Below are positions 9,834 to 45,454 of a stretch of 45,454 nt of DNA, piece after piece. The notes under the pieces are model-generated. The model saw only the letters and a program-made list of their open reading frames with translations, was not told where the DNA came from and did no database searches. A program made the position numbers and the translations under genes. Within the stretch, counting starts at the first letter, position 1. Each line of letters starts with the position of its first letter. Origin of the DNA: a virus (taxonomy: Duplodnaviria; Caudoviricetes); IMG/VR virus record IMGVR_UViG_3300017761_001092, positions 1 through 45,454 of that record, one strand, 5' to 3'.

Positions 9834-12800
9834 ATGGGACTTTTCGACGATCTTCTTGAGGAAGATAACATTCAAACTACTCCAAAGAGAGGCGGCTTAT
9901 TTGATGATCTTCTTGAAGAAGAGAAAGAGATAGGAACGCTTGAGGGCATTTCTAACGCAGCTAGGAACGCTTTCGATTCATCCCGCCAAGCATTGGACGT
10001 TGTGGGTGGCGTAACTCCAGAAGAGGCTCAAAACATATCCAAGATTGAGTTTGATAAGAGATCAAGGAAGCTTGCTCCTGGTTACGACGAATACCAAAAG
10101 GCTGAAGGATGGGATGCGGTATGGGCATTTGCTAAGAACCCAATCGAGGTTACATCAAACATCATAGCCGAAGGTCTTGCTGGTAGCTTGCCTGCACTTG
10201 GGGCAGGATTGGCTGCTGGTGGCGTTGGTGCTGCTATCGGCGCTCCAACTGGAATTGGCGCACCAATTGGATTTACCGCTGGTCAAGTAGCCGGAACATT
10301 TGCTGGATCGCTTGCAACGGAATATGGAAGCAAGGTTCTTGAAGAACTTCAAGGCGAGGGGATGGATATTTCTGACCCTAATAGTATCCAGACATTCTTT
10401 GGCAATGAAGAACTCGTAGGAAAAGCTAGGGACAAAGCATTAACGCGAGGAGTTCCAGTTGCTGCATTTGATGCGTTGTCTGCCGGTATCGGTGGCAAGC
10501 TCGGAAGAGTATTCGGAACTAAAGCTATCGAAGAAGGTGGAAAGGTTATTGGTAAACAATTTGCAACCAAAACTGGTGGGGCACTTACTGAACTTGGAGT
10601 TCAGGCGGGGCTTGGTGGTGGAGGTGAAGTTGCTGGTGCGCTTGCTGCTGGTGAGCCGATTGAAGGCAAGGCAGTATTTGGTGAGGTTATCGGTGAGGTT
10701 GGGCCAGGCTCTATTGAAGTACTTACTGGTCGTATTGCTGATAAACGAGCAATGGCCAAAGCCCAAGAAGATGCGAAGATCAAGGCTACTTCTGAACTAT
10801 CTACAACCCTTGAAGAGAATAACGCTCCACTTACCGCCAATGCAGTAACAACAAGGGCTGCAACTAACATTGAGCAAGATAAACTTGCCGCACAATTAGA
10901 CGAAGAACTTTCAATACAACAAGCAGCAGCCGCTGCACAACCACCAACAACAGATGCCACTAAAGAAATCATCCAGCCAGAAGGCGTTCGTGAAGAACCT
11001 CAAGACGGAACTCAAGTCGAACCGACCAATGAAACAATCGCTCGCAATCGCGTACTCGGTGCAGAAGCAGGCCAAGAAGAAGGGCAAGTAGATCCTGTCG
11101 TTAGCGGGTTACAAGCTGTAGCCAACAATACCGCAACAAGTGAGCAGATTGCCTCGCTATCGATGCAAGGACTCGTAGACATACGTAGAGGCCAAGCAAT
11201 TATCAATGAGGACGGAGAGGGCATCCTAGCGCAAGCGCAAGCCCCATTGCCAAAGCTCACACCAGAAGCAAGAGCTGCTGAAGTTGAAGCTGTAACTCCA
11301 AGACCACTTCCAACGGATGTTTTACCTACAGAGACACCAGGCGCGGAATACGGAAGAGAAGCTGAATTGTTTGATGTATTCGGTAATGTCAGAAGGAAGC
11401 CAGCAGAGATTCCAGTAGAACCTATCATTGGAGAAGAACCGCAAGTTTCTCCGATAGTAGGCGAGCAAGTTACAGAGACAGCTCCAGTAGAACAAGTTGC
11501 TGAAACTCAAATCGCAGAAGAACCTATCATCTTGGAAAAACCGCAAACTTCTGAGATAGTAGGTGCTGAAACTCCTGCTATTGTTGAACAAGAACAAGTT
11601 GCGACAGCGGAAGTTCCCGCACCAGGGGTTGAGAAACCAACTGGTGGTATTGATTATTACAAGCAACTTGGTGAACAAGATGCGTTAGACGCTAATCGCA
11701 AAAAGAAGCGTTCAGTTCCGCAGAACTTTAAATTGGCATATGAAGTAGGTTGGTCTGATGCAAGAAAAAAACTTAGAGCAGAACCAGTCACTCCCGCACC
11801 AGTCACCGAGCCAGTAGTAGAACCTTCCCGAACGGGAATAACAGAGCCTGCCATAGCCGCCGAAGAACAAGTTGTTACCGAGCGGGAAGCTGCACCAGCA
11901 GAAGCTCCCGCGCCAGAGGTTGGAGATATTGTTGCTGTTGATAGAAAAAATAATACTGAATTTGCTTTAGTTAAAGGGCTGCTTCCAGAAAGGCCGGATA
12001 TGTTTTCAATCGGAATTAGACTGATTGGATCAAATCAACCATTTGAAAGTGGAGGTTACGGACACAATACTAGCAAAGATTCTGTAATGAAGCGTTTCTT
12101 TGAAAAGGAACGGAGTAGACTTCAAGATATTGAAATTAAAAATCAATACTTCCAGAATATTATTAACGAAGAGGAAGGCAGGGTTTCTGCTGTAGAAGCT
12201 AAAGAATCGGAAAAGAAACAGCAGGAGCAGGAGAAACAAAGACAATTTAATGAAGAAAAGGCGGCATATGAAGATGCAATATCTCAAGTTAAGATTCCAA
12301 CAGGGAAATCTGAGACAATGCGATTCACCGCGCCAGACGGTTCAGATCAGGCTTTTGAATCAAAACGATATGGAGATGTCGGAATAAGAAAAGTAACATC
12401 TGGCAAGAATGCGCTATACAATGTGGATCATTGGCATTCTGGACTGCGTATTATGCAGTTTAATTCTTTGTCTGAAGCCAAGAAATTCACGCAAGCAATC
12501 ATTGCATCTGGAGCTGATATTTCTAAAAAAGACATTCAAGAATCTGAATTAGAGAAACTGCGACCAATTGCTAGATACTTTAGGAGCGGAGAAGTGGTTC
12601 CATCCCTTCCATCGCAACTCACTCCAGCAGTATCGGAAACAATAACCCCCGCCGCAGAACCAGAAGGCATCACGGTAGGCAACCGAGTCAAGTTAGGCAA
12701 GAGTCCACAGACATACACCATCGAAGAAGTCATCCCTCAAACAGCAACAGAGAGAGATTTAGGCGAGCAGTATTACTCTGTGAAGAACGAACGCACGGGA

Positions 12801-15800
12801 GAGGTGCAAGTAGTAGAGGCAATGGACTTGAAGAAGGTTGGTGGGAAGAGGGCGCGGAAAATGGCTGTCGAAGAGAAGATTTCTAAAACAGCATTGATTG
12901 ATAAGGATGGAAGCATCATTAGCGCACCAAATAAAAATCACGCAATGCTAATGGAGGAGAGCCAGTTCAACTTGGATGCTGGCGAGTATCCTCCAATGGA
13001 GAACTATGGGTTTGTTACAAACTTTGGAAGATTCGTTGGTCAGAAGGAAGCGCAGGAGATCGCTCGTAATTCGCGGCAGGTTGTAGGAAATCAGCCAATC
13101 AGCGGAGAGATTGTTACTGCAATCAACGAAGAAGAAGGCGCGAATATTTTAAGGCTCAATGTCCAAGGCGCTTCTGGAAACAAATTCAATGAAGCAGGGT
13201 TCAAGAGATTCCCCGGCATTGCTGTTACGAAAACTAATTCAGCAACACTAACATCGCATCCATTATACAATGCAGCAAAAAACTTTGAGAATGTAAAAGC
13301 TGCTAAAATTATTGTGGATGAATTAATTGACGATCAATTCATTTTTGATTTATTTGCAAACATTGATGAGACTAAACCCGCTTATATTGTTCCAATATTA
13401 AAAAGCGAGGGAGATTCTTTAAATATGCTTCCAGTTGCATTGGCTGAAAAACTCTCCAATGCAAGCGGAATCCCCGTGTGGGGTAACTTGATTCAAGCTA
13501 CTTCAGAACAAAGCACTGGTGCTGGAGTGAATGATAAGACGGAGATATCAAGGCAGTTCATGGGTGAAGCTCCCCCAGAAGGATCACAGATAATTATCGT
13601 TGATGATTATCTTGCTACTGGAAGAACAATCGCTTCGCTTGAAAATATGAGTGGAACGGCATCTGCTGTTGCAACAATAGCTCTTGGAAGATATGGGAGA
13701 CAATATGGGCTTACCACTAAACAAGCAGAAAATTTACTTGAAAAAGCAAACACAACAAGAGAAAGATTTTATGAAATATATGGATTACAACCAGAACAAG
13801 CAATCACCGGAATTGAAGCCCAAGTCTACCTCCTTAATGGGGCCGCTGGGGAAAGTGGACTTACAAGTAGATTCCCTGTCGAAAAAATTTCACCAAGCAA
13901 TGAAAGAATTAAAAACATTGCGAATATCCCAGAATCAATAGTTTTATTTTCTGGAGGAGGGTTGTTTGAACTTGGGATTAGAGGAATTGCAAGACCTGGG
14001 TATGCTGTAGAGGCTAATCAAAGAATTGCTGAATTCTACGAGGAGGCTCATGGAGTTCCCGTAATTCAAGAGTATGTCCAGAATGTAAAATTTTATGGGA
14101 TTAATGGAGGACACTTCCATGCGTCTCCTGTTTGCAAGAATTTCTCTGGAGCTAAAAACAAAAAACAAATTACAGAAGCAGACATAGAGCTTGATAAGAC
14201 TGCTGCAAATGCTGTTGCTCAAGCAATTACAGACATACAGCCAAATACAATTTCCATTGAAAATGTAAAACAATACATTGGTTCTGATTCATATAATACA
14301 ATCATATCTGCTCTTGAGAAGAATGGTTATATTTATGATGCAAATGTATATAAATCTAGCGATTTTGGATCGCCAACAAGCAGAGAGAGGCTTATTATCA
14401 GAGCCGTTAAAAAAGGTGGAGTTCTACCAGAAATAAAGAAGAAAAAGAAAACAATGTCTTGGTATGATTCTCTTAAAGACATTGTTAATGATTTGCCAGA
14501 TCACAATATTTATGAGCGCAGATATCCTGCTAAAATGATGCGGGCATTGGAGCGCAAAGGAATTGATTTATTTAATGTTAGAGAACCGCTTTTAATTAGT
14601 GGAATGAGCGGAGAGTCTATGCGTTGGTCAAATGAACCTGCGTTTACACTCTTGGCATCACCTGGGTCTTTAAACATTATTGCTCTTCCTGGCGGCATTG
14701 TTAAAAAAGTTACAGCACGGGCAATGGCAAGAATGACTGGTGTTCCAGATTCATTTCCACTTCCAGAAGACGAAGCTCTTGCAAAAACAATTGTTGGAAA
14801 TGGAATTCCTCCTGCGCTTACAAGATCGGTGATTGGCGACTTGATTCAAAAGAATCAAAAGCCAGAAGTTGCCGTTCCAAAACCAGTTGATAAAAAAAAT
14901 CGCTACACATACGAAGAAGCTGTAAGGCTGGTTGACTCATACTTCGACAAGGAAGGAATACCAGAAGGTGTAGTTATTGTAAACAATACTACTGATCCAG
15001 ACCTTGAGATGAAGGCAGGGTATTTCGTGAATCGTGGACAGATCGTTATTAACCTCGCATATATCGCTAAAGGAGAGAACCTATCTGATATTATCTCACA
15101 CGAACTTGGTCACTTCATTTTTGGAGATCCAGAGTTCCAAGCTGAATTCAAGAAGTTCTGGGACTTAATGACACCAGAAGAACAAGCTGAAGCTGATAGG
15201 CTAATAAACCAATTTTACAACGAAGAGACTGGCGCAGTGCAGATGGAAGAGAAGCAAGTCCGTGCATTCATGCAGTTGATCCAAGAGGGCAATGCTCAAC
15301 CACAATGGAAGAAGGTTCTGGATACGATCAAGCGTTGGATTAACAAGTATCTTAAAACGAACTTTCAGGTAACTGACAGAAACGCATTGGCAGTCCTTGC
15401 TGCCGCACACAAGCGATTTAAGAGTGGTGAGCGTATCATCCGTGAGATTGACTCTGGAGTGCTTAAAATGGCAGCAGAGCCGAAGCGTGAGCAAGTAGCA
15501 GGCAAGGAGCGCGGAGAGATCATTACGACTCCAGAAGGAATCATTAAGCAAACGAACGAGGTATTGCGTAAGAAGTTCTTCGATGGATCAGTAGTCTCTG
15601 ACGAGAATACAAGTGCTGCATGGGATTACATAGAGCAATTGTTGGATATTAAATCTGGATCCGCATATGACTTGGCCGGACAGATCAACAATGTTGTAGA
15701 TCAAGAAACAAATTCGGATACAAGAATGGGCGCTGGTTTGTTCTCTGTATCACTTGCAAATTACGCTGCAAAGTTGGCAGCTCAAGGCAATACTACAATG

Positions 15801-18800
15801 ATTTCATATCTTGTTCGTAGAATTAATAGTATGCCAACCGATAATCGTGGAGGCACTGCAACAGAATCTGGTAGGGTGTTAAGAGGCAAGCGGGAATACG
15901 ACATTGATGGATATCACACAATAACAACTGAACATGATTCCAAGGTTGAAAGAACGGCAGCTACATTGTTTGGAACAAGCAAGCCTAGCAAGGAGCAGGT
16001 AAGGGTTGTTCAAGATGCAATTGATGCCGCTGATGAAGAATCTATTGGAACCCCTGAAGACGTTGCTGCTGAAATTGAAAAGGTAGAGGAGCGAACAAAG
16101 CGTCCGATAATCAAGGCTATCGATGAAAAGATAAAAGAATCAACAGATCCAAAGAAAGAAGAACTTCTTATCTCGTTTGAGAATTTAGATGCAGATAGAA
16201 AAATCAAAGGAATCACGATTAAATATAATCCGCAGAAGGTAAACGCAGCCAAAAACATTAAAGATTTTATTATTGGCAAGATGGTTGACTATAGGAAAAC
16301 ACTTGTCAATCAAGGAGCGGGTGGACTTGAGTCTACATTCTGGCAGACGATGAGTAATCAAGAAAACAAGCCTGGCCCATTGGGAGAGCTTGACCAAGCG
16401 CAGAACAACGAACTTGCTAAGATCGTTAAGAGTACGCTTATTAAACTTGGACTAAAGGGAGAGCCTCCGAATACAAAGATGACAGACATTGAAAAGGTTG
16501 CGTCCATCTTGAACGAGAATAAGTTGAGTGATGAGAAGAGGCTTGAAGCTGATAGCAGGATCGTTGAGGAGATCGAGCGTAGAAGGCAGAGCGAACTTGC
16601 ATCCGGCTCAAGCCCAGAAGCTGTTAACGCGAAATACGATGTCATTCTTGATGCTTGGAATGAAGCTATGAGCAGGCAGATTAATATGCCAATCAGCGAC
16701 AATATGCTTCAGCGTTTGCTTAAATCAGAGATCAAGGAACGCAATACGAAGACAAGCGAGCTTATCAACGAAGAAGACGGAAGAGTTGTTGAGGAAGTTA
16801 AGAATGACATTGTTGATTCTATTATTCGCAGAATCTATGGTGTTTCTAAAGAGTCTGAAATTGGAATTGAGATGGATGAGGATTACACCAATCTTCAGTC
16901 TTATTTAAAGCAGACGCTTAACAATATGTATGCTACGGCCATTGATAAAAAAAATGCCGCATACGCAAAACGCCAAGCACAGATAAGTCTTAGGAGCAAT
17001 GTTGAAGGACAAGCTCAATCAATCATCAATCAACTTGCAGATCAGATGACAGATACTCCTGCGTTCCCGCAGAAGCAAGAGAACCAAATTAAGGCTATTG
17101 TTCAACAAGACTTGAGGCAGAGACCAAACATGGGACGCAAGCAACCCTGGACGAGCCAGCTTACTGCAAAGCTTATACAGGCTGGAGTAAGCGAAACTCA
17201 GGCACAAAAGATCTCTGACCTCGTATGGAGGCAGCATGAGATTAAGGCAATGGATCGTGAGCTTAAAGAGCTTCAGACGGCAGCAGAGAAGGGATCTCTC
17301 GCAGTTATCATCCAGCGCATCAAAGACACTCCGCTTGCAATGCAACAAGAACCTAACTGGATGCAAGGCGTAATCCGCGAATACTTGGTTGAGGCAGGAC
17401 TATCAGAGAATGCAGCTAAGACAGCAGCGAGGCTCTATGAAAGCGTGATATCTGAAAGATTCGCTGAAGCCAAGCAGAAGGCATTTGAAGCCGCTCTTAA
17501 CAAGTCAGCACCTTGGAATAACTTCCTTTCTAGAAATGTTAAGCTTGGTAAGGACGCATTGAAGAAGATTCAAGAAGCAATTAGAACTGGAGTGCTTGAT
17601 CCTACGCAGACTACAGAAAGCATTATTGCAAAGCAGAACGGATGGTCTGGCTTCAGCAAAGAACAACTAACTCGCATTGTCCAGTTGGATGACATACTTT
17701 CAGATAGTAATACTGATCAAGTCACAAAGGCCGAAGCAATGTCTGAACTGAATAAGATTATTGTAAAGGCAAAGATGCCAGTAAGATTCAAAGATGCAAT
17801 CAGCTCATTCTATGTTGCTCAGGCTCTCATGGGTATTCCGACATTTACGGTTAACATTGCTAGCCCTACGTTTTTTGCAATTCGCAACTTGGCTATAGAT
17901 GTTGCTAAATATGCAGCTACAGATCCGAAAAACATTCCGGTTGCATTTCAGAGCTTTATGAATTCCATGCAAAACTGGAAAGACAATTCTTTGTATGCAT
18001 TTAAAAACCAAATTTATATGTCTGGTGAAATTGAATATATGCAAGGGCAAAACGTCCTGCGCGAATTATTTGATAAAGGAATGGATCAGTGGAAGAAGGG
18101 TGAGTATGCAAATGGCATGGCAAATATGCTTGTCGGCATGACGCAAATTACAGGGCGAGTTCTTTCATCTTTGGATCAAGGCGCAATTGCAATGATGGAA
18201 AGCCAAAATATTCCAAGGTATGCCCTTGATGCAATGGCATCTAATAAAAAGATTCCTAAAGATAAACGTAAAGAAATTGCAAATATTGCTCTTTATGGAC
18301 GTAACCGTATGAAGCAAGACTTGATAGAGTCTGGAATGTCGCCAGAAAGAGCTGGAGTTCTTGCCGATCTTCAAATGCGTTCTGAGCTTATCGCATCACT
18401 CTCAGAGTACGGCATCAGCAAAACGGAAGTACTTGACGCTTCATTGAACGATGCGCTTCAGTCTGTTGGTAGAAATCGTGTTATTACAACAGAAGGATTC
18501 AAGCAGGAGCGCAATAACTTGCGTGATGCCGGAATAACATCTGGGCTTGCAATTGGGTTCCTTGAGAACCTTGCATCAAGTGCAAACAAGGGTGGTCAGG
18601 CACAGCAAATTTTCGCTAGAATGCTCTACGGATTTGCGCTAGTTCCGGCTCGCGTTTTCTCTACGGCGCTATGGTTTAGTCCAGTTGGATTCGTTAGGCT
18701 TGGCGTTGATTCATTACTAAAGAAAGCAGGGGTTGAATCACGTTATGCAATGTCACTTGCCACTGACCTTCAATACAAGCAACGTGTTTATGAGTCTATT

Positions 18801-19805
18801 GCTGGAACTGTTTTATTGGGCGCACTTGCATCAGTAGTGAAAAGCTCAACAGATGACGAAGACGATGAATTGCCATTTAAAATTGTAGCTACAGGTAACG
18901 GGCCTAACTACACCACTGATCCTCAATACTACGATTCATGGAACAAGAGGAATAAACCAGGCGAGTTGTCCATGTACTTTGGTAAAACAAAATTCACCTT
19001 AAACATTGGAAGAGGTGGTGAAGCAGTATCTATTCCGTTTATGATTGCTGGTGCATTTGACGATTGGAATATTAAATCAAAGCAAAATTCAGCAAAAAAC
19101 TCACCAAAAGATTTAGAGATGGCGGCAGAGGTATTGGGTTCAGCGTTCTATGCCTTCGCTCAACGTGGCCCTTGGGCTGCATTTGGAAAGCCATTGTTCG
19201 ACGCTAAAAAGCAAGACAAGCTTGTTCCAGAACTATTTGGTAAGGCGGCATACTTGGGCAAAACATTTGTTCCAATTCTAGGGTCTTCGCTTGCAAGAAA
19301 CATATCCGACTTCATCAATGATCCGATTGACAAGTCTTCTGTTCAAGGAGCTATTTATGCAAACACTCCGGTGATTGGGCCAATGCTTGGCACAAAGGCA
19401 CTCAATGCGCTTGGTCAGCCAGTTAGGGGAGATGATTGGAATGATAAGCTGTTCAAGCTTGGCGTTCCGATTGTATTCTCGTTCCCTAAAAACTCACCAG
19501 AAAATGACCTCAATATATTGATTCTAAAGAAAGGTGACGGGCCAACAATTCCTACAAGGACAAATGCACAGAAGAAATTTGGTGACATTATGACGGATAA
19601 AGAATTTGAAACATATGTTCGTGAGTATGGACGAGTTGTATCAGACAAGATGTTCAAGAACAGAAAGAGGCTTGAAGGTATGAATTCAGAGAACTATACT
19701 AAAGAACTAGATAAATATGTTAATGGGTACTCAATCGATGGGATTAAAGTCACAGGAGCTTCTGACATGGCAATTCGCGCTGTAAGAAAAGCAAGGAACC
19801 AATGA
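9834..19805 (+). CDS. giant polyvalent/ejection protein with PRTase, C5 cytosine DNA methyltransferase and zincin peptidase domains
   Basis: 3323 aa; N-terminal GLFDDLLEE twice plus Gly/Ala hydrophobic segments; PRTase loop IIIVDDYLATGRT (~13590); MTase motifs LFSGGG, HASPVC, ENV, RERL, GNGIPP (~13940-14830); HELGH (~15100). Confidence 0.85.
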   Translation: MGLFDDLLEEDNIQTTPKRGGLFDDLLEEEKEIGTLEGISNAARNAFDSSRQALDVVGGVTPEEAQNISKIEFDKRSRKLAPGYDEYQKAEGWDAVWAFAKNPIEVTSNIIAEGLAGSLPALGAGLAAGGVGAAIGAPTGIGAPIGFTAGQVAGTFAGSLATEYGSKVLEELQGEGMDISDPNSIQTFFGNEELVGKARDKALTRGVPVAAFDALSAGIGGKLGRVFGTKAIEEGGKVIGKQFATKTGGALTELGVQAGLGGGGEVAGALAAGEPIEGKAVFGEVIGEVGPGSIEVLTGRIADKRAMAKAQEDAKIKATSELSTTLEENNAPLTANAVTTRAATNIEQDKLAAQLDEELSIQQAAAAAQPPTTDATKEIIQPEGVREEPQDGTQVEPTNETIARNRVLGAEAGQEEGQVDPVVSGLQAVANNTATSEQIASLSMQGLVDIRRGQAIINEDGEGILAQAQAPLPKLTPEARAAEVEAVTPRPLPTDVLPTETPGAEYGREAELFDVFGNVRRKPAEIPVEPIIGEEPQVSPIVGEQVTETAPVEQVAETQIAEEPIILEKPQTSEIVGAETPAIVEQEQVATAEVPAPGVEKPTGGIDYYKQLGEQDALDANRKKKRSVPQNFKLAYEVGWSDARKKLRAEPVTPAPVTEPVVEPSRTGITEPAIAAEEQVVTEREAAPAEAPAPEVGDIVAVDRKNNTEFALVKGLLPERPDMFSIGIRLIGSNQPFESGGYGHNTSKDSVMKRFFEKERSRLQDIEIKNQYFQNIINEEEGRVSAVEAKESEKKQQEQEKQRQFNEEKAAYEDAISQVKIPTGKSETMRFTAPDGSDQAFESKRYGDVGIRKVTSGKNALYNVDHWHSGLRIMQFNSLSEAKKFTQAIIASGADISKKDIQESELEKLRPIARYFRSGEVVPSLPSQLTPAVSETITPAAEPEGITVGNRVKLGKSPQTYTIEEVIPQTATERDLGEQYYSVKNERTGEVQVVEAMDLKKVGGKRARKMAVEEKISKTALIDKDGSIISAPNKNHAMLMEESQFNLDAGEYPPMENYGFVTNFGRFVGQKEAQEIARNSRQVVGNQPISGEIVTAINEEEGANILRLNVQGASGNKFNEAGFKRFPGIAVTKTNSATLTSHPLYNAAKNFENVKAAKIIVDELIDDQFIFDLFANIDETKPAYIVPILKSEGDSLNMLPVALAEKLSNASGIPVWGNLIQATSEQSTGAGVNDKTEISRQFMGEAPPEGSQIIIVDDYLATGRTIASLENMSGTASAVATIALGRYGRQYGLTTKQAENLLEKANTTRERFYEIYGLQPEQAITGIEAQVYLLNGAAGESGLTSRFPVEKISPSNERIKNIANIPESIVLFSGGGLFELGIRGIARPGYAVEANQRIAEFYEEAHGVPVIQEYVQNVKFYGINGGHFHASPVCKNFSGAKNKKQITEADIELDKTAANAVAQAITDIQPNTISIENVKQYIGSDSYNTIISALEKNGYIYDANVYKSSDFGSPTSRERLIIRAVKKGGVLPEIKKKKKTMSWYDSLKDIVNDLPDHNIYERRYPAKMMRALERKGIDLFNVREPLLISGMSGESMRWSNEPAFTLLASPGSLNIIALPGGIVKKVTARAMARMTGVPDSFPLPEDEALAKTIVGNGIPPALTRSVIGDLIQKNQKPEVAVPKPVDKKNRYTYEEAVRLVDSYFDKEGIPEGVVIVNNTTDPDLEMKAGYFVNRGQIVINLAYIAKGENLSDIISHELGHFIFGDPEFQAEFKKFWDLMTPEEQAEADRLINQFYNEETGAVQMEEKQVRAFMQLIQEGNAQPQWKKVLDTIKRWINKYLKTNFQVTDRNALAVLAAAHKRFKSGERIIREIDSGVLKMAAEPKREQVAGKERGEIITTPEGIIKQTNEVLRKKFFDGSVVSDENTSAAWDYIEQLLDIKSGSAYDLAGQINNVVDQETNSDTRMGAGLFSVSLANYAAKLAAQGNTTMISYLVRRINSMPTDNRGGTATESGRVLRGKREYDIDGYHTITTEHDSKVERTAATLFGTSKPSKEQVRVVQDAIDAADEESIGTPEDVAAEIEKVEERTKRPIIKAIDEKIKESTDPKKEELLISFENLDADRKIKGITIKYNPQKVNAAKNIKDFIIGKMVDYRKTLVNQGAGGLESTFWQTMSNQENKPGPLGELDQAQNNELAKIVKSTLIKLGLKGEPPNTKMTDIEKVASILNENKLSDEKRLEADSRIVEEIERRRQSELASGSSPEAVNAKYDVILDAWNEAMSRQINMPISDNMLQRLLKSEIKERNTKTSELINEEDGRVVEEVKNDIVDSIIRRIYGVSKESEIGIEMDEDYTNLQSYLKQTLNNMYATAIDKKNAAYAKRQAQISLRSNVEGQAQSIINQLADQMTDTPAFPQKQENQIKAIVQQDLRQRPNMGRKQPWTSQLTAKLIQAGVSETQAQKISDLVWRQHEIKAMDRELKELQTAAEKGSLAVIIQRIKDTPLAMQQEPNWMQGVIREYLVEAGLSENAAKTAARLYESVISERFAEAKQKAFEAALNKSAPWNNFLSRNVKLGKDALKKIQEAIRTGVLDPTQTTESIIAKQNGWSGFSKEQLTRIVQLDDILSDSNTDQVTKAEAMSELNKIIVKAKMPVRFKDAISSFYVAQALMGIPTFTVNIASPTFFAIRNLAIDVAKYAATDPKNIPVAFQSFMNSMQNWKDNSLYAFKNQIYMSGEIEYMQGQNVLRELFDKGMDQWKKGEYANGMANMLVGMTQITGRVLSSLDQGAIAMMESQNIPRYALDAMASNKKIPKDKRKEIANIALYGRNRMKQDLIESGMSPERAGVLADLQMRSELIASLSEYGISKTEVLDASLNDALQSVGRNRVITTEGFKQERNNLRDAGITSGLAIGFLENLASSANKGGQAQQIFARMLYGFALVPARVFSTALWFSPVGFVRLGVDSLLKKAGVESRYAMSLATDLQYKQRVYESIAGTVLLGALASVVKSSTDDEDDELPFKIVATGNGPNYTTDPQYYDSWNKRNKPGELSMYFGKTKFTLNIGRGGEAVSIPFMIAGAFDDWNIKSKQNSAKNSPKDLEMAAEVLGSAFYAFAQRGPWAAFGKPLFDAKKQDKLVPELFGKAAYLGKTFVPILGSSLARNISDFINDPIDKSSVQGAIYANTPVIGPMLGTKALNALGQPVRGDDWNDKLFKLGVPIVFSFPKNSPENDLNILILKKGDGPTIPTRTNAQKKFGDIMTDKEFETYVREYGRVVSDKMFKNRKRLEGMNSENYTKELDKYVNGYSIDGIKVTGASDMAIRAVRKARNQ

Positions 19806-41298: not shown

Positions 41299-41518
41299 AT
41301 ACGAACAATATAATTCTTTAGTTAAAACACAGAAGTTTCTACGTGATCTTCTATACACTGACACTCGCCCTAAGAAAGTGTCTGAACTGAAAGCAAGAGC
41401 ATATAGTTGTCTCCGTCACTTCCCTCATTTAAGGGAAACTGGCGAGCCAATGTTTAGCCGAGATGATTTTCCGTGTCCAATAATTCAACCCATAAACGAA
41501 CATGACAGCAATAAATAA
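41288..41518 (+). CDS. hypothetical protein
   Basis: 76-aa ORF overlapping both neighbours; CLRHFP motif. Confidence 0.6.
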   Translation: MSLKYEQYNSLVKTQKFLRDLLYTDTRPKKVSELKARAYSCLRHFPHLRETGEPMFSRDDFPCPIIQPINEHDSNK

Positions 41519-42236
41519 ACAATGGAAGAGGTGGATGGCAGTTAGCTGCTCGCACGGAGATCATATTGACCCAGAGGCCAGGGACGCTGTATTGTCGTTT
41601 AAGGAGCGTTTCAAGCCAAATACTACCATCCATCTAGGAGACTTCATTGACGCAGCGGCGGCCCGTTCTGGAGCAATGAATGACCCTAACGCTTCGGACA
41701 GGGCGGCATCGGTAGCTGAAGATCTTTCTGCGGGTGTTGATTTTTTGCAGGAGCTTCGGCCAAATCATATCCTATATGGCAACCATGAGGACAGATTGTT
41801 CCGCCTGGCTAACTCACCTAACGCTCTGGCTGCTCACGCCGCGACTCTAGTTATTCAGGAGATTGAGAAGACAGCTAGGTCACTCAAGGCTCGGACGTAT
41901 CCATATGATATGCAAAATCATCCTATAATTGGTGGCACACGCTTTATCCACGGATTCATGTACAACGTGGCTGCCATCAGAGATCATGCGGAGACGTTTG
42001 GGACGTGCGTGATGGGGCATATCCACCGCACTGGTATTGAGCAAGCGAGAACGCTTGATGGAGCTACTGGATACTCTATTGGTATGCTTATGAGGTTCGG
42101 CGCTGACTATGCCAAGACGAAACGCCAGACGTTGGCTTGGACGCAGGGATTTGGTTACGGATATTACACAGACACACAGATCACAATAAACCTATGCGAA
42201 AGAAAACGCTCAAACCCTTGGATGTTGCCGCTATAA
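41502..42236 (+). CDS. calcineurin-like metallophosphoesterase
   Basis: CSHG, LGDFID, GNHEDR, HG and GHIHR motifs. Confidence 0.9.
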   Translation: MTAINKQWKRWMAVSCSHGDHIDPEARDAVLSFKERFKPNTTIHLGDFIDAAAARSGAMNDPNASDRAASVAEDLSAGVDFLQELRPNHILYGNHEDRLFRLANSPNALAAHAATLVIQEIEKTARSLKARTYPYDMQNHPIIGGTRFIHGFMYNVAAIRDHAETFGTCVMGHIHRTGIEQARTLDGATGYSIGMLMRFGADYAKTKRQTLAWTQGFGYGYYTDTQITINLCERKRSNPWMLPL

Positions 42237-42534: not shown

Positions 42535-42939
42535 CTATTTTATTGTTTCCCAATAGTCAATGGGATAATTAATTTCTATTTCTGTTTTTTCGTTGTCGAA
42601 TCCTTTGACTTTTTCTTGCTCGACTTGGAGCTTGATTGTCCACGGGTTGTCTTCAGGTAGGAGTCCAGCGTGTCGCAGGCCATCGAGTAGATTCTTTGTT
42701 GAAGCTGCGGCGTTGTCTGGATCAAGACACCGGACTCGGAACAGAGTGAAGCGGACTTCAATGCGCCCAACAGCGCGTCCCAGGCTATGTTCTTTTCCTT
42801 GTATTGGACTGCCCAGTGTTGTCGCATGGTCTTGTTCAACGATGGTGTTCTGTATAGGACTGTTAGTTTTAGTTGCATTGGCTTGGATGAATGATTTAGA
42901 TGCGTTAGGAAATGCTAGTAGTAGTTCTTTCTGAGTCAT
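42535..42939 (-). CDS. RusA-like Holliday junction resolvase (catalytic frame)
   Basis: LDPDN...KNLLDGLRHAGLLPEDN...TEIEI; ATG 42939 overlaps the HNH stop (ATGA). Confidence 0.75.
   Translation of the reverse strand: MTQKELLLAFPNASKSFIQANATKTNSPIQNTIVEQDHATTLGSPIQGKEHSLGRAVGRIEVRFTLFRVRCLDPDNAAASTKNLLDGLRHAGLLPEDNPWTIKLQVEQEKVKGFDNEKTEIEINYPIDYWETIK
42576..42878 (-). CDS. overprinted ORF encoding a RusA-type N-terminus
   Basis: MQLKLTVLYRTPSLNKTMRQHWAVQYKEK..W; open for 100 codons in the +1 frame. Confidence 0.55.
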   Translation of the reverse strand: MQLKLTVLYRTPSLNKTMRQHWAVQYKEKNIAWDALLGALKSASLCSESGVLIQTTPQLQQRIYSMACDTLDSYLKTTRGQSSSKSSKKKSKDSTTKKQK

Positions 42940-43223
42940 AGTATGTATCCATTTTCCTTGGCCCAAGCTGGATTGTTGTGAATTTCAGTATGACAAAATC
43001 TACAGGTCGACAGGAATGTATCTTTGTTGCACAGGTTCTTACCTCGCTTCGCCATGTGGTGAATATCACTAGCATCAAGACCGCAGATCTCGCAATATGG
43101 ATTCCTTGCAAAGTGTTCCTTCCTTGCCTGCGAGTATTGCTTTAGTTCCTTAGAATGCCTTTCAGATACCTTATTCATTGGTTTCTTCGATGTTAGTCTA
43201 CTTCTTCTTTTTAACAGGCTCAT
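42936..43223 (-). CDS. HNH endonuclease
   Basis: CEIC...DIHH...TCRFCHTEIH. Confidence 0.85.
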   Translation of the reverse strand: MSLLKRRSRLTSKKPMNKVSERHSKELKQYSQARKEHFARNPYCEICGLDASDIHHMAKRGKNLCNKDTFLSTCRFCHTEIHNNPAWAKENGYIL

Positions 43224-44794: not shown

Positions 44795-45454
44795 ATGTGG
44801 ATACTACCATCACAACTCTTGAAATGTGCGCCGGATATGGAGGCATTGGACTTGGACTCAAAAACATCTTTGGCGAGCGATTGCGAACCATTGCATATTG
44901 TGAGCTTGAGGGGTTCGCTCAAGCCAATCTCATCAGTAAGATGGAAAAAGGACTCTTGGATGCAGCACCTATATGGAGCGATCTTAAAACCTTCCCATAC
45001 AAATCGTTTCACGGACTGGTGGACATCCTCATTGCGGGATACCCATGTCAGCCATTTAGCGCAGCAGGAAAAAGAGCAGGTAAAGAAGACCCAAGACATC
45101 TTTGGCCTTGGATCGCAGACGGAATTCGACTTCTTCAACCAAAAATGTGCTTCTTCGAGAATGTCGAAGGACACATCAGCCTTGGACTCCGAGAAGTCAT
45201 TGGAGAGCTGGAATCAATCGGTTACAAAGCGGCGTGGGGAATATTTAGCGCGGCTGAAGTCGGCGCACCGCATCAGCGCAAGAGGGTCTTCATCCTGGCC
45301 TACGATAAGAGCCAGCGAATACAAGGACACTGGGCCGATTGGCTCCAAGAGCCACGACCACATGCTGGGCAAGGGCTACCTCTGCGCGGTGGTGACGCAG
45401 GATGCGGCGAATTGGCCGACGCCTTGTGCAATGGAGGCAGAGAAGGCGGGCCTA
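44795..45454 (+). CDS. overprinted ORF in the +1 frame of dcm with WPT(P) motifs; putative second methyltransferase subunit (3'-truncated)
   Basis: ATG 44795, no stop for 220 codons: MWILPSQLL...SSWPTIRASEYKD...NWPTPCAMEAEK. Confidence 0.7.
   Translation, partial: MWILPSQLLKCAPDMEALDLDSKTSLASDCEPLHIVSLRGSLKPISSVRWKKDSWMQHLYGAILKPSHTNRFTDWWTSSLRDTHVSHLAQQEKEQVKKTQDIFGLGSQTEFDFFNQKCASSRMSKDTSALDSEKSLESWNQSVTKRRGEYLARLKSAHRISARGSSSWPTIRASEYKDTGPIGSKSHDHMLGKGYLCAVVTQDAANWPTPCAMEAEKAGL
44797..45454 (+). CDS. dcm: C5 cytosine DNA methyltransferase, catalytic chain (3'-truncated, not in ORF track)
   Basis: GTG start; CAGYGG (motif I), AGYPCQPFS (IV), FENV (VI), GAPHQRKRVF (VIII). Confidence 0.9.
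   Translation, partial: MDTTITTLEMCAGYGGIGLGLKNIFGERLRTIAYCELEGFAQANLISKMEKGLLDAAPIWSDLKTFPYKSFHGLVDILIAGYPCQPFSAAGKRAGKEDPRHLWPWIADGIRLLQPKMCFFENVEGHISLGLREVIGELESIGYKAAWGIFSAAEVGAPHQRKRVFILAYDKSQRIQGHWADWLQEPRPHAGQGLPLRGGDAGCGELADALCNGGREGGP

Follow-up and report, generated by a model that had tools for sequence, protein, structure and literature searches.

Two overlapping reading frames on the minus strand of a phage genome, the second wholly nested in the first, probably encode the two chains of a single RusA-like resolvase, each translated on its own before assembly; because both frames are conserved and each resembles a different half of RusA, the enzyme is likely to consist of two separately made proteins. 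The source sequence is the IMG/VR virus record IMGVR_UViG_3300017761_001092, linear and analysed over its 45,454 nt (the window), and it is present in freshwater metagenome runs. The first-pass annotation had left the locus between a two-chain resolvase and a -1 frameshift; selection on both frames supports the two-chain reading, and frameshifting is disfavoured.

Organisation of the locus and its neighbours

Both frames, each with its own ATG and open through the overlap as first described, were found in the window. The features discussed below are the following:

42535..42939, minus strand: gene A, 134 aa with its own ATG, the RusA-like catalytic half (leader, linker and C-terminal half)
42576..42878, minus strand: gene B, 100 aa with its own ATG, in the +1 frame relative to A and wholly nested in A; a putative RusA-like N-terminal half (first strand, PSLN loop, helix) followed by an extra helix and a basic tail
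42874..42939, minus strand: leader of A (aa 1-22), FPNAS-type, two short predicted helices, coded almost wholly in frame A only
A aa 23-57, minus strand: variable linker of A
42559..42771, minus strand: catalytic half of A (aa 57-127), predicted beta-alpha-beta-beta, with the catalytic-pattern residues D73, D75, N76, K82, D86 and D97
42723-42721 and 42651-42649, minus strand, frame A: codons of D73 and D97, respectively
42762..42878, minus strand: B aa 1-39, strand, PSLN loop (42845-42834), HW (42818-42813) and helix
42645..42710, minus strand: B aa 57-78, extra predicted helix overlying the catalytic helix of A, with conserved A67, L71 and Y74
42579..42644, minus strand: B aa 79-100, basic tail rich in Ser/Lys
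42936..42939, minus strand: ATGA overlap between the start codon of A and the stop codon that ends the upstream HNH gene
42936..43223, minus strand: upstream HNH-endonuclease-like gene, 95 aa (phrog_740, E 3.8e-9)
44795-45454, plus strand: C5 methyltransferase with two open frames that overlap, truncated by the end of the window

The upstream HNH gene is in the same frame as B and is separated from it by stops; a stop/start overlap of the ATGA type is typical of translational coupling. The genes surrounding the cassette include a metallophosphoesterase gene (41502-42236, plus strand; phrog_221, E 2.5e-18), which converges on it and has a similar gene in the same place in close relatives. A 113-aa antisense ORF (42593-42934, plus strand) lies over the A/B overlap, and a 3323-aa ORF (9834-19805, plus strand) is located among virion-like genes.

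A dual-frame dcm had also been proposed nearby, and two open frames with methyltransferase matches are indeed present: the frame starting at the GTG at 44797 matches Pfam DNA_methylase (E 1e-32), and the frame starting at the ATG at 44795 matches phrog_1008 (E 8e-11). The methyltransferase site has two long overlapping frames in five related loci (L001, L003, L004, L008 and L011), representing at least two sequence types. This layout resembles that of the C5 methyltransferase M.EcoHK31I, whose beta chain lies wholly in another frame of the alpha chain and is needed for activity (PMC2836561). No dual-frame dcm was seen in the 3 kb flanks of two other dual RusA loci (L176, L178).

The layout of the resolvase locus is not an assembly error, since it is common to 83 of 106 distinct homologous loci, which also answers the question of whether homologues keep both frames open. 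Contigs assembled from X4 and X5, runs of two studies neither of which is flagged as the origin of the record, match 42562-42831 gap-free, without the 1-nt indel that the first-pass annotation had considered improbable. A second, minor X4 contig represents a diverged strain, in which 1-base indels at 42592 and 42595 compensate each other, and in a related strain whose sequence in run X7 spans the gene, the sole indel inside is a compensated pair (42926/42931) upstream of B. Fourteen IMG/VR loci showed 81-93% identity to A, and a search with B returned the same 14 contigs; all 13 that were translated keep both frames in register. An assembly error is consequently rejected on two grounds, the gap-free independent contigs and the retention of both frames in the 14 close relatives, and the dual-frame observation is confirmed as real. 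In one close relative (L007) B ends sooner, at a stop 21 codons beyond D73.

Homologues and selection on both frames

The A profile matched 2588 clusters at E<=0.001 among 1.84 billion representatives, and 859 (50% identity clusters) at E<=1e-10, not every one of which need be dual-frame. Homologous DNA was gathered through the motifs of the catalytic half: 181 sequences were scanned, 5 without the motif were dropped, and the remaining 176 gave 106 distinct loci. The B motif was present in the +1 frame of 83 loci (79 by pattern, 4 by eye), 21 were single-chain, and two were set aside (L137, cut by a contig end, and L146, with a 1-base insertion). L047, a duplicated contig end, was counted in the stop, heptamer and B-ATG tests and excluded from the tree, from the A-start overlap count and from the test at <70% identity.

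Frame B is seldom annotated by gene callers (2 protein matches vs 22 for A), and its Trp is invariant in the 62 B-family members (62/62). Its imprint can be read in frame A: in the 150 best A-family proteins, a ranking biased to proteins with this linker because the profile included the linker, Leu was found at A position 42 in 144, and a [SPTA]-L-[VADEG] triplet, forced by the His-Trp codons of the +1 frame, in 140. A motif like the FPNAS type of the A leader was present in 56 of the 150 family proteins. The net charge of B is +12 in the window, and the median of its family is +15, vs +3 for the N-terminal half of the single-chain relatives.

Two of the dual loci (L154 and L165) come from named genomes, both of them Verrucomicrobiota-group MAGs, a weak hint to the host group. 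In 401 genomes of one bacterial phylum the B profile matched one genome strongly, that of L154, and gave 5 marginal matches (E about 1e-4). A tblastn search of the GenBank phage collection with one A-type and one B-type query gave no match, and hence no cultured model phage, which may explain why the layout is undescribed. In L165 (828-1159) frame A has a stop 47 codons ahead of the catalytic Asp and therefore no leader; one candidate A start lies near that stop, and there is a Met immediately ahead of the first strand.

In a tree computed from a 54-row, 68-column alignment of the catalytic half, all 36 dual rows fell in one supported group, which also holds the single-chain L044; a single origin of the dual rows was recovered in 24% of bootstrap trees. 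L044 (1700-2180) encodes a single-chain RusA-like protein with the motif LLDPDN on a long branch within the dual-frame clade, and could possibly be a sister lineage or a re-fusion. In one sub-lineage (L145, L148, L149, L150) D[VI]DAK replaces DPDN in A and, simultaneously, PNPRN replaces PSLN in B.

The avoidance of stops was analysed by holding the amino acids of a frame fixed while its synonymous codons were drawn anew to match either GC or the local codon usage, in 37 representatives with <80% identity and in 18 single-chain controls. Over the catalytic core of A (codons -12 to +35 relative to D73), B had 1 stop vs 78-107 expected, and over the conserved part of B, A had 0 vs 50-52 expected, these counts being not fully independent, as the 37 representatives are mutually related. 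The third frame, used as a control, had 99 stops vs 120-122 expected (A core) and 98 vs 74-89 (B part), and the 18 single-chain controls had 52 vs 55-60 and 76 vs 72, respectively. In the 15 representatives with <70% identity the result was the same: B had 1 stop vs 43 expected and A 0 vs 22, and beyond D73, B had 1 vs 30 expected. In 81 of the 83 dual loci, the first B stop comes no earlier than codon +36 counted from D73. The significance of the open frames comes from the homologues and not from the single window locus, where B would remain open by chance with probability 0.08 and A with probability 0.12, neither value being significant.

The residues of B are also conserved. Their identity over the A core was 0.408 vs a mean of 0.259 under a null keeping B open (maximum 0.267, 200 runs), and 0.253 vs 0.250 in the single-chain control, the excess being perhaps inflated by relatedness because the controls are more diverse than the dual set. 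It was found in specific, helically spaced columns (A67, 81%; L71, 84%; Y74, 73%), the neighbouring columns being mixed; Y74 of B requires the Ile codon ATA in frame A.

The substitution pattern switches along the gene from A-synonymous to B-synonymous and back to A-synonymous. In 12 close sequences, 22 of 31 alleles were synonymous in A over A aa 1-20; of the 39 alleles in A aa 21-57 (B aa 1-37), 29 were silent in B and 34 altered A; and over A aa 58-120, 28 of 44 were again synonymous in A. These comparisons of stops, residues and substitutions show selection on both frames along the entire overlap.

Resemblance of the two halves to RusA

E. coli RusA is the Holliday-junction resolvase of the DLP12 prophage (PF05866; PDB 1Q8R, 2H8C, 2H8E). 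The RusA dimer cuts four-way junctions symmetrically with Mg2+, and its fold consists of a four-stranded mixed sheet and two helices. E. coli RusA is a single chain acting as a homodimer, its catalytic residues are D70, D72, K76 and D91 (once given as D90), R69 binds DNA, and residues 13-28 contact the junction centre or are modelled into it (PMC1636454).

The resemblance of A to this protein is confined to its catalytic half. Against the PHROG RusA-like families A matched at aa 57-124 only (phrog_1682, E 1.1e-6; phrog_34, E 3e-6), and Pfam PF05866 (RusA) gave no match with A or B of the window; among 100 A proteins, 3 matched Pfam RusA at E<0.1 (best E 0.0019). B alone had no match in Pfam or PHROG, and none of 62 B-family members matched a RusA family in a PHROG scan. 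The two halves were compared with an alignment of 17 single-chain DPDN proteins, 6 of which match PF05866 at E<0.1. Residues 48-124 of A aligned to single-chain residues 42-114 (E 3.6e-13), and the B profile (aa 3-39) aligned by hhalign to residues 2-40 (E 1.6e-4, hhalign probability 51%); these profile alignments show A and B to be complementary halves of the single-chain relatives. B had been described as the first strand, PSxN loop and helix of RusA, a claim that finds weak support in the hhalign match and none in Pfam or PHROG.

Searches of PDB sequences with the A and B profiles gave no matches at E<=10, and a search of the ESM Atlas with B gave no match at or above 0.9 and no family. In the AlphaFold model of A (pLDDT 87), two short helices in the leader are followed by a linker of low confidence and by a core in the order strand-helix-strand-strand. 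The best match of this model among 48,161 chains was 1q8r, residues 52-118 (Z 4.8, rmsd 2.8, 65 aligned), a Z score tied with those of unrelated folds, and Foldseek against the PDB found no match at E<=0.001, RusA not being among the matches listed. The whole RusA fold is not present in one chain: the core of A, three strands and a single helical segment, corresponds to RusA 52-118 only, and the first strand and helix of RusA map to frame B in the profile alignment. The model of B is of low confidence (pLDDT 68, pTM 0.40), with helices at 18-49 and 57-78 and no first strand.

The catalytic positions of A were nearly invariant in the 150 family proteins: D73, D86 and D97 in 150, K82 in 149, D75 in 140 (Glu in 8) and N76 in 120. 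Judging by motif and spacing, and allowing for three residues inserted ahead of the Lys, A would contain the equivalents of RusA D70, D72, N73, K76 and D91. The likenesses to E. coli RusA are the DxDN...K...D pattern, the distance from the Lys to the last Asp (15 in both), the phage location and the adjoining HNH gene. The differences are several: A lacks the counterpart of residues 1-51, which appears in another frame; three extra residues separate DxDN from the Lys (Asp-to-Lys spacing 9 in the A family vs 6 in E. coli RusA); Leu, and not an Arg equivalent to R69, precedes the catalytic Asp (121/150), with Arg kept three and five residues before this Asp in 117 and 137 of the 150 proteins, respectively; and B adds a helix and a basic tail, and A a leader. 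Since the enzyme is not a single chain, scores poorly against the Pfam family and has no counterpart of R69, it is classed as RusA-like and not as a plain RusA member. The single-chain DPDN phage proteins (PHROG 34, 1682) have the same motif spacing as A, partly owing to the search pattern, but hold both halves in a single frame, with stops in the +1 frame as numerous as expected.

The A/B system likely works like RusA. It is unlikely that both chains are translated but B is a regulator, an inhibitor or a separate DNA-binding partner, or that A/B cuts another branched substrate. The conserved extra helix and very basic tail of B, absent from the single-chain relatives, the lack of an Arg before the catalytic Asp, the weak match of B to RusA and the confident model of A alone (pLDDT 87) would all fit such a role; however, the conserved part of B aligns exactly to the stretch missing from A, which in E. 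coli RusA comprises helix 1 and the S13-R19 region, proposed to contact the junction (PMC1636454), and the catalytic Asp and Lys positions of A are nearly invariant.

Probable expression of the two chains and significance of the layout

Both frames have candidate starts of their own. An ATG is located 18-27 codons ahead of the Trp of B in 26 of the 37 representatives, vs 2/37 and 5/37 in the other frames; it is absent from this usual place in 11/37, and an ATG occurs somewhere upstream in the open B frame in 35/37. A candidate start of A upstream of the B motif was found in all 36 representatives examined (36/36), and an A start overlapping the stop of the upstream ORF in 21 of these 36 and in 59 of 82 loci, compared with 146 of 2318 background ATGs (with about 2 candidate A starts per locus, roughly 12% overlap is expected). 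The ATG of B has no Shine-Dalgarno site, and the RNA around it is unstructured (-0.1 kcal/mol). The single RNA run among those listed as matching the window had a low share of matching words and yielded no contig, a result without bearing on expression. In positions 1-40000 of the window, 33 of 42 listed starts had no Shine-Dalgarno match of at least 4 bases, and the upstream sequence was A/T-rich, which suggests a host with Shine-Dalgarno-independent initiation.

A programmed -1 ribosomal frameshift or transcriptional slip from the B helix into the A strand, making a single-chain RusA with the unshifted products as by-products, is quite unlikely, even though the geometry of the crossover permits it. 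An A_AAA_AAG-type heptamer in the B register occurs in 15 of the 83 dual loci (14 at the position of the KEKK residues, 1 elsewhere), but in only 2 of the 37 representatives, and no conserved slippery heptamer was found in register at the crossover (37 representatives, 83 loci). The earlier remark that no canonical slippery site is visible near 42800-42760 holds for the whole gene in the window, in which no site is in register: its only XXXYYYZ heptamers, at 42590 and 42551, are out of register and beyond the catalytic residues. The KEKK-position heptamer falls in the middle of the B helix, and the later residues A32, A35, L36 and L40 remain conserved. A shift from B to A yields an active enzyme only before D73, and consequently cannot explain the selection that keeps B open and conserved past D73; by the same geometry it cannot explain the selection on A ahead of the crossover, where A has an open frame, a leader and a coupled start. 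The database protein P0017, considered as a natural B-to-A fusion, was rejected: it is a single sequence, joined after the DxDN motif and therefore without two catalytic Asp. Two further candidates, each a single record, were also discarded: P0001, which has an internal duplication, and L146, a dual locus that looked fused but has a 1-base insertion.

That B is untranslated, with A truncated or stand-alone and the openness of B due to codon bias, RNA structure or sequencing/assembly error, is very improbable, the rarity of B annotations (2 vs 22 protein matches) and the non-significant openness of the window locus alone being outweighed by the independent contigs without an indel, the 14 close relatives with both frames, the stop avoidance under both the GC and the local codon-usage null, absent from the controls, the flip of synonymous substitutions from A to B to A, and the invariant Trp of B (62/62).

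For the two-chain resolvase we propose the following course of events. Ribosomes finishing the upstream gene would re-initiate on A at the ATGA overlap, and B would be translated without a Shine-Dalgarno site from its unstructured internal ATG, as apparently are most genes of the phage. The strand and helix of B would complete the sheet of A, which would provide the metal-binding Asp and Lys residues. Two A/B pairs are predicted to form an A2B2 Holliday-junction resolvase, the counterpart of the RusA dimer, which would resolve junctions in phage recombination or replication; speculatively, the extra helix and basic tail of B could add DNA binding or stabilise the complex. We lean towards a broader reading, in which a large clade of uncultured phages from fresh water, soil and sediment would carry an obligate A2B2 resolvase from fully overlapping genes, the nested chain having gained its helix and basic DNA-binding tail over the catalytic codons of its partner, with half of the enzyme unseen by gene callers in hundreds of clusters.

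The gene layout itself has a precedent in M.EcoHK31I, in which both chains are required for activity (PMC2836561). In both systems the second chain (here B) is encoded entirely in another frame of the first (here A). The enzymes are unrelated, however; the nested chain gives motif IX in the methyltransferase and about the first third of the fold here; and the association of the chains was shown there, whereas here it is inferred. A literature search for split or overlapping RusA, covering the titles and abstract openings of the papers listed, found none.

If the proposal is true, RusA-like resolvases would join the M.EcoHK31I-type methyltransferase as a second class of enzyme with chains in overlapping frames, and a natural example of one enzyme split into mutually overprinted halves. 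The family is large and B is almost always missed by gene callers, making it a compact and deeply sampled system, suited to the study of how genes split into overlapping halves and of how codons are shared under double selection.
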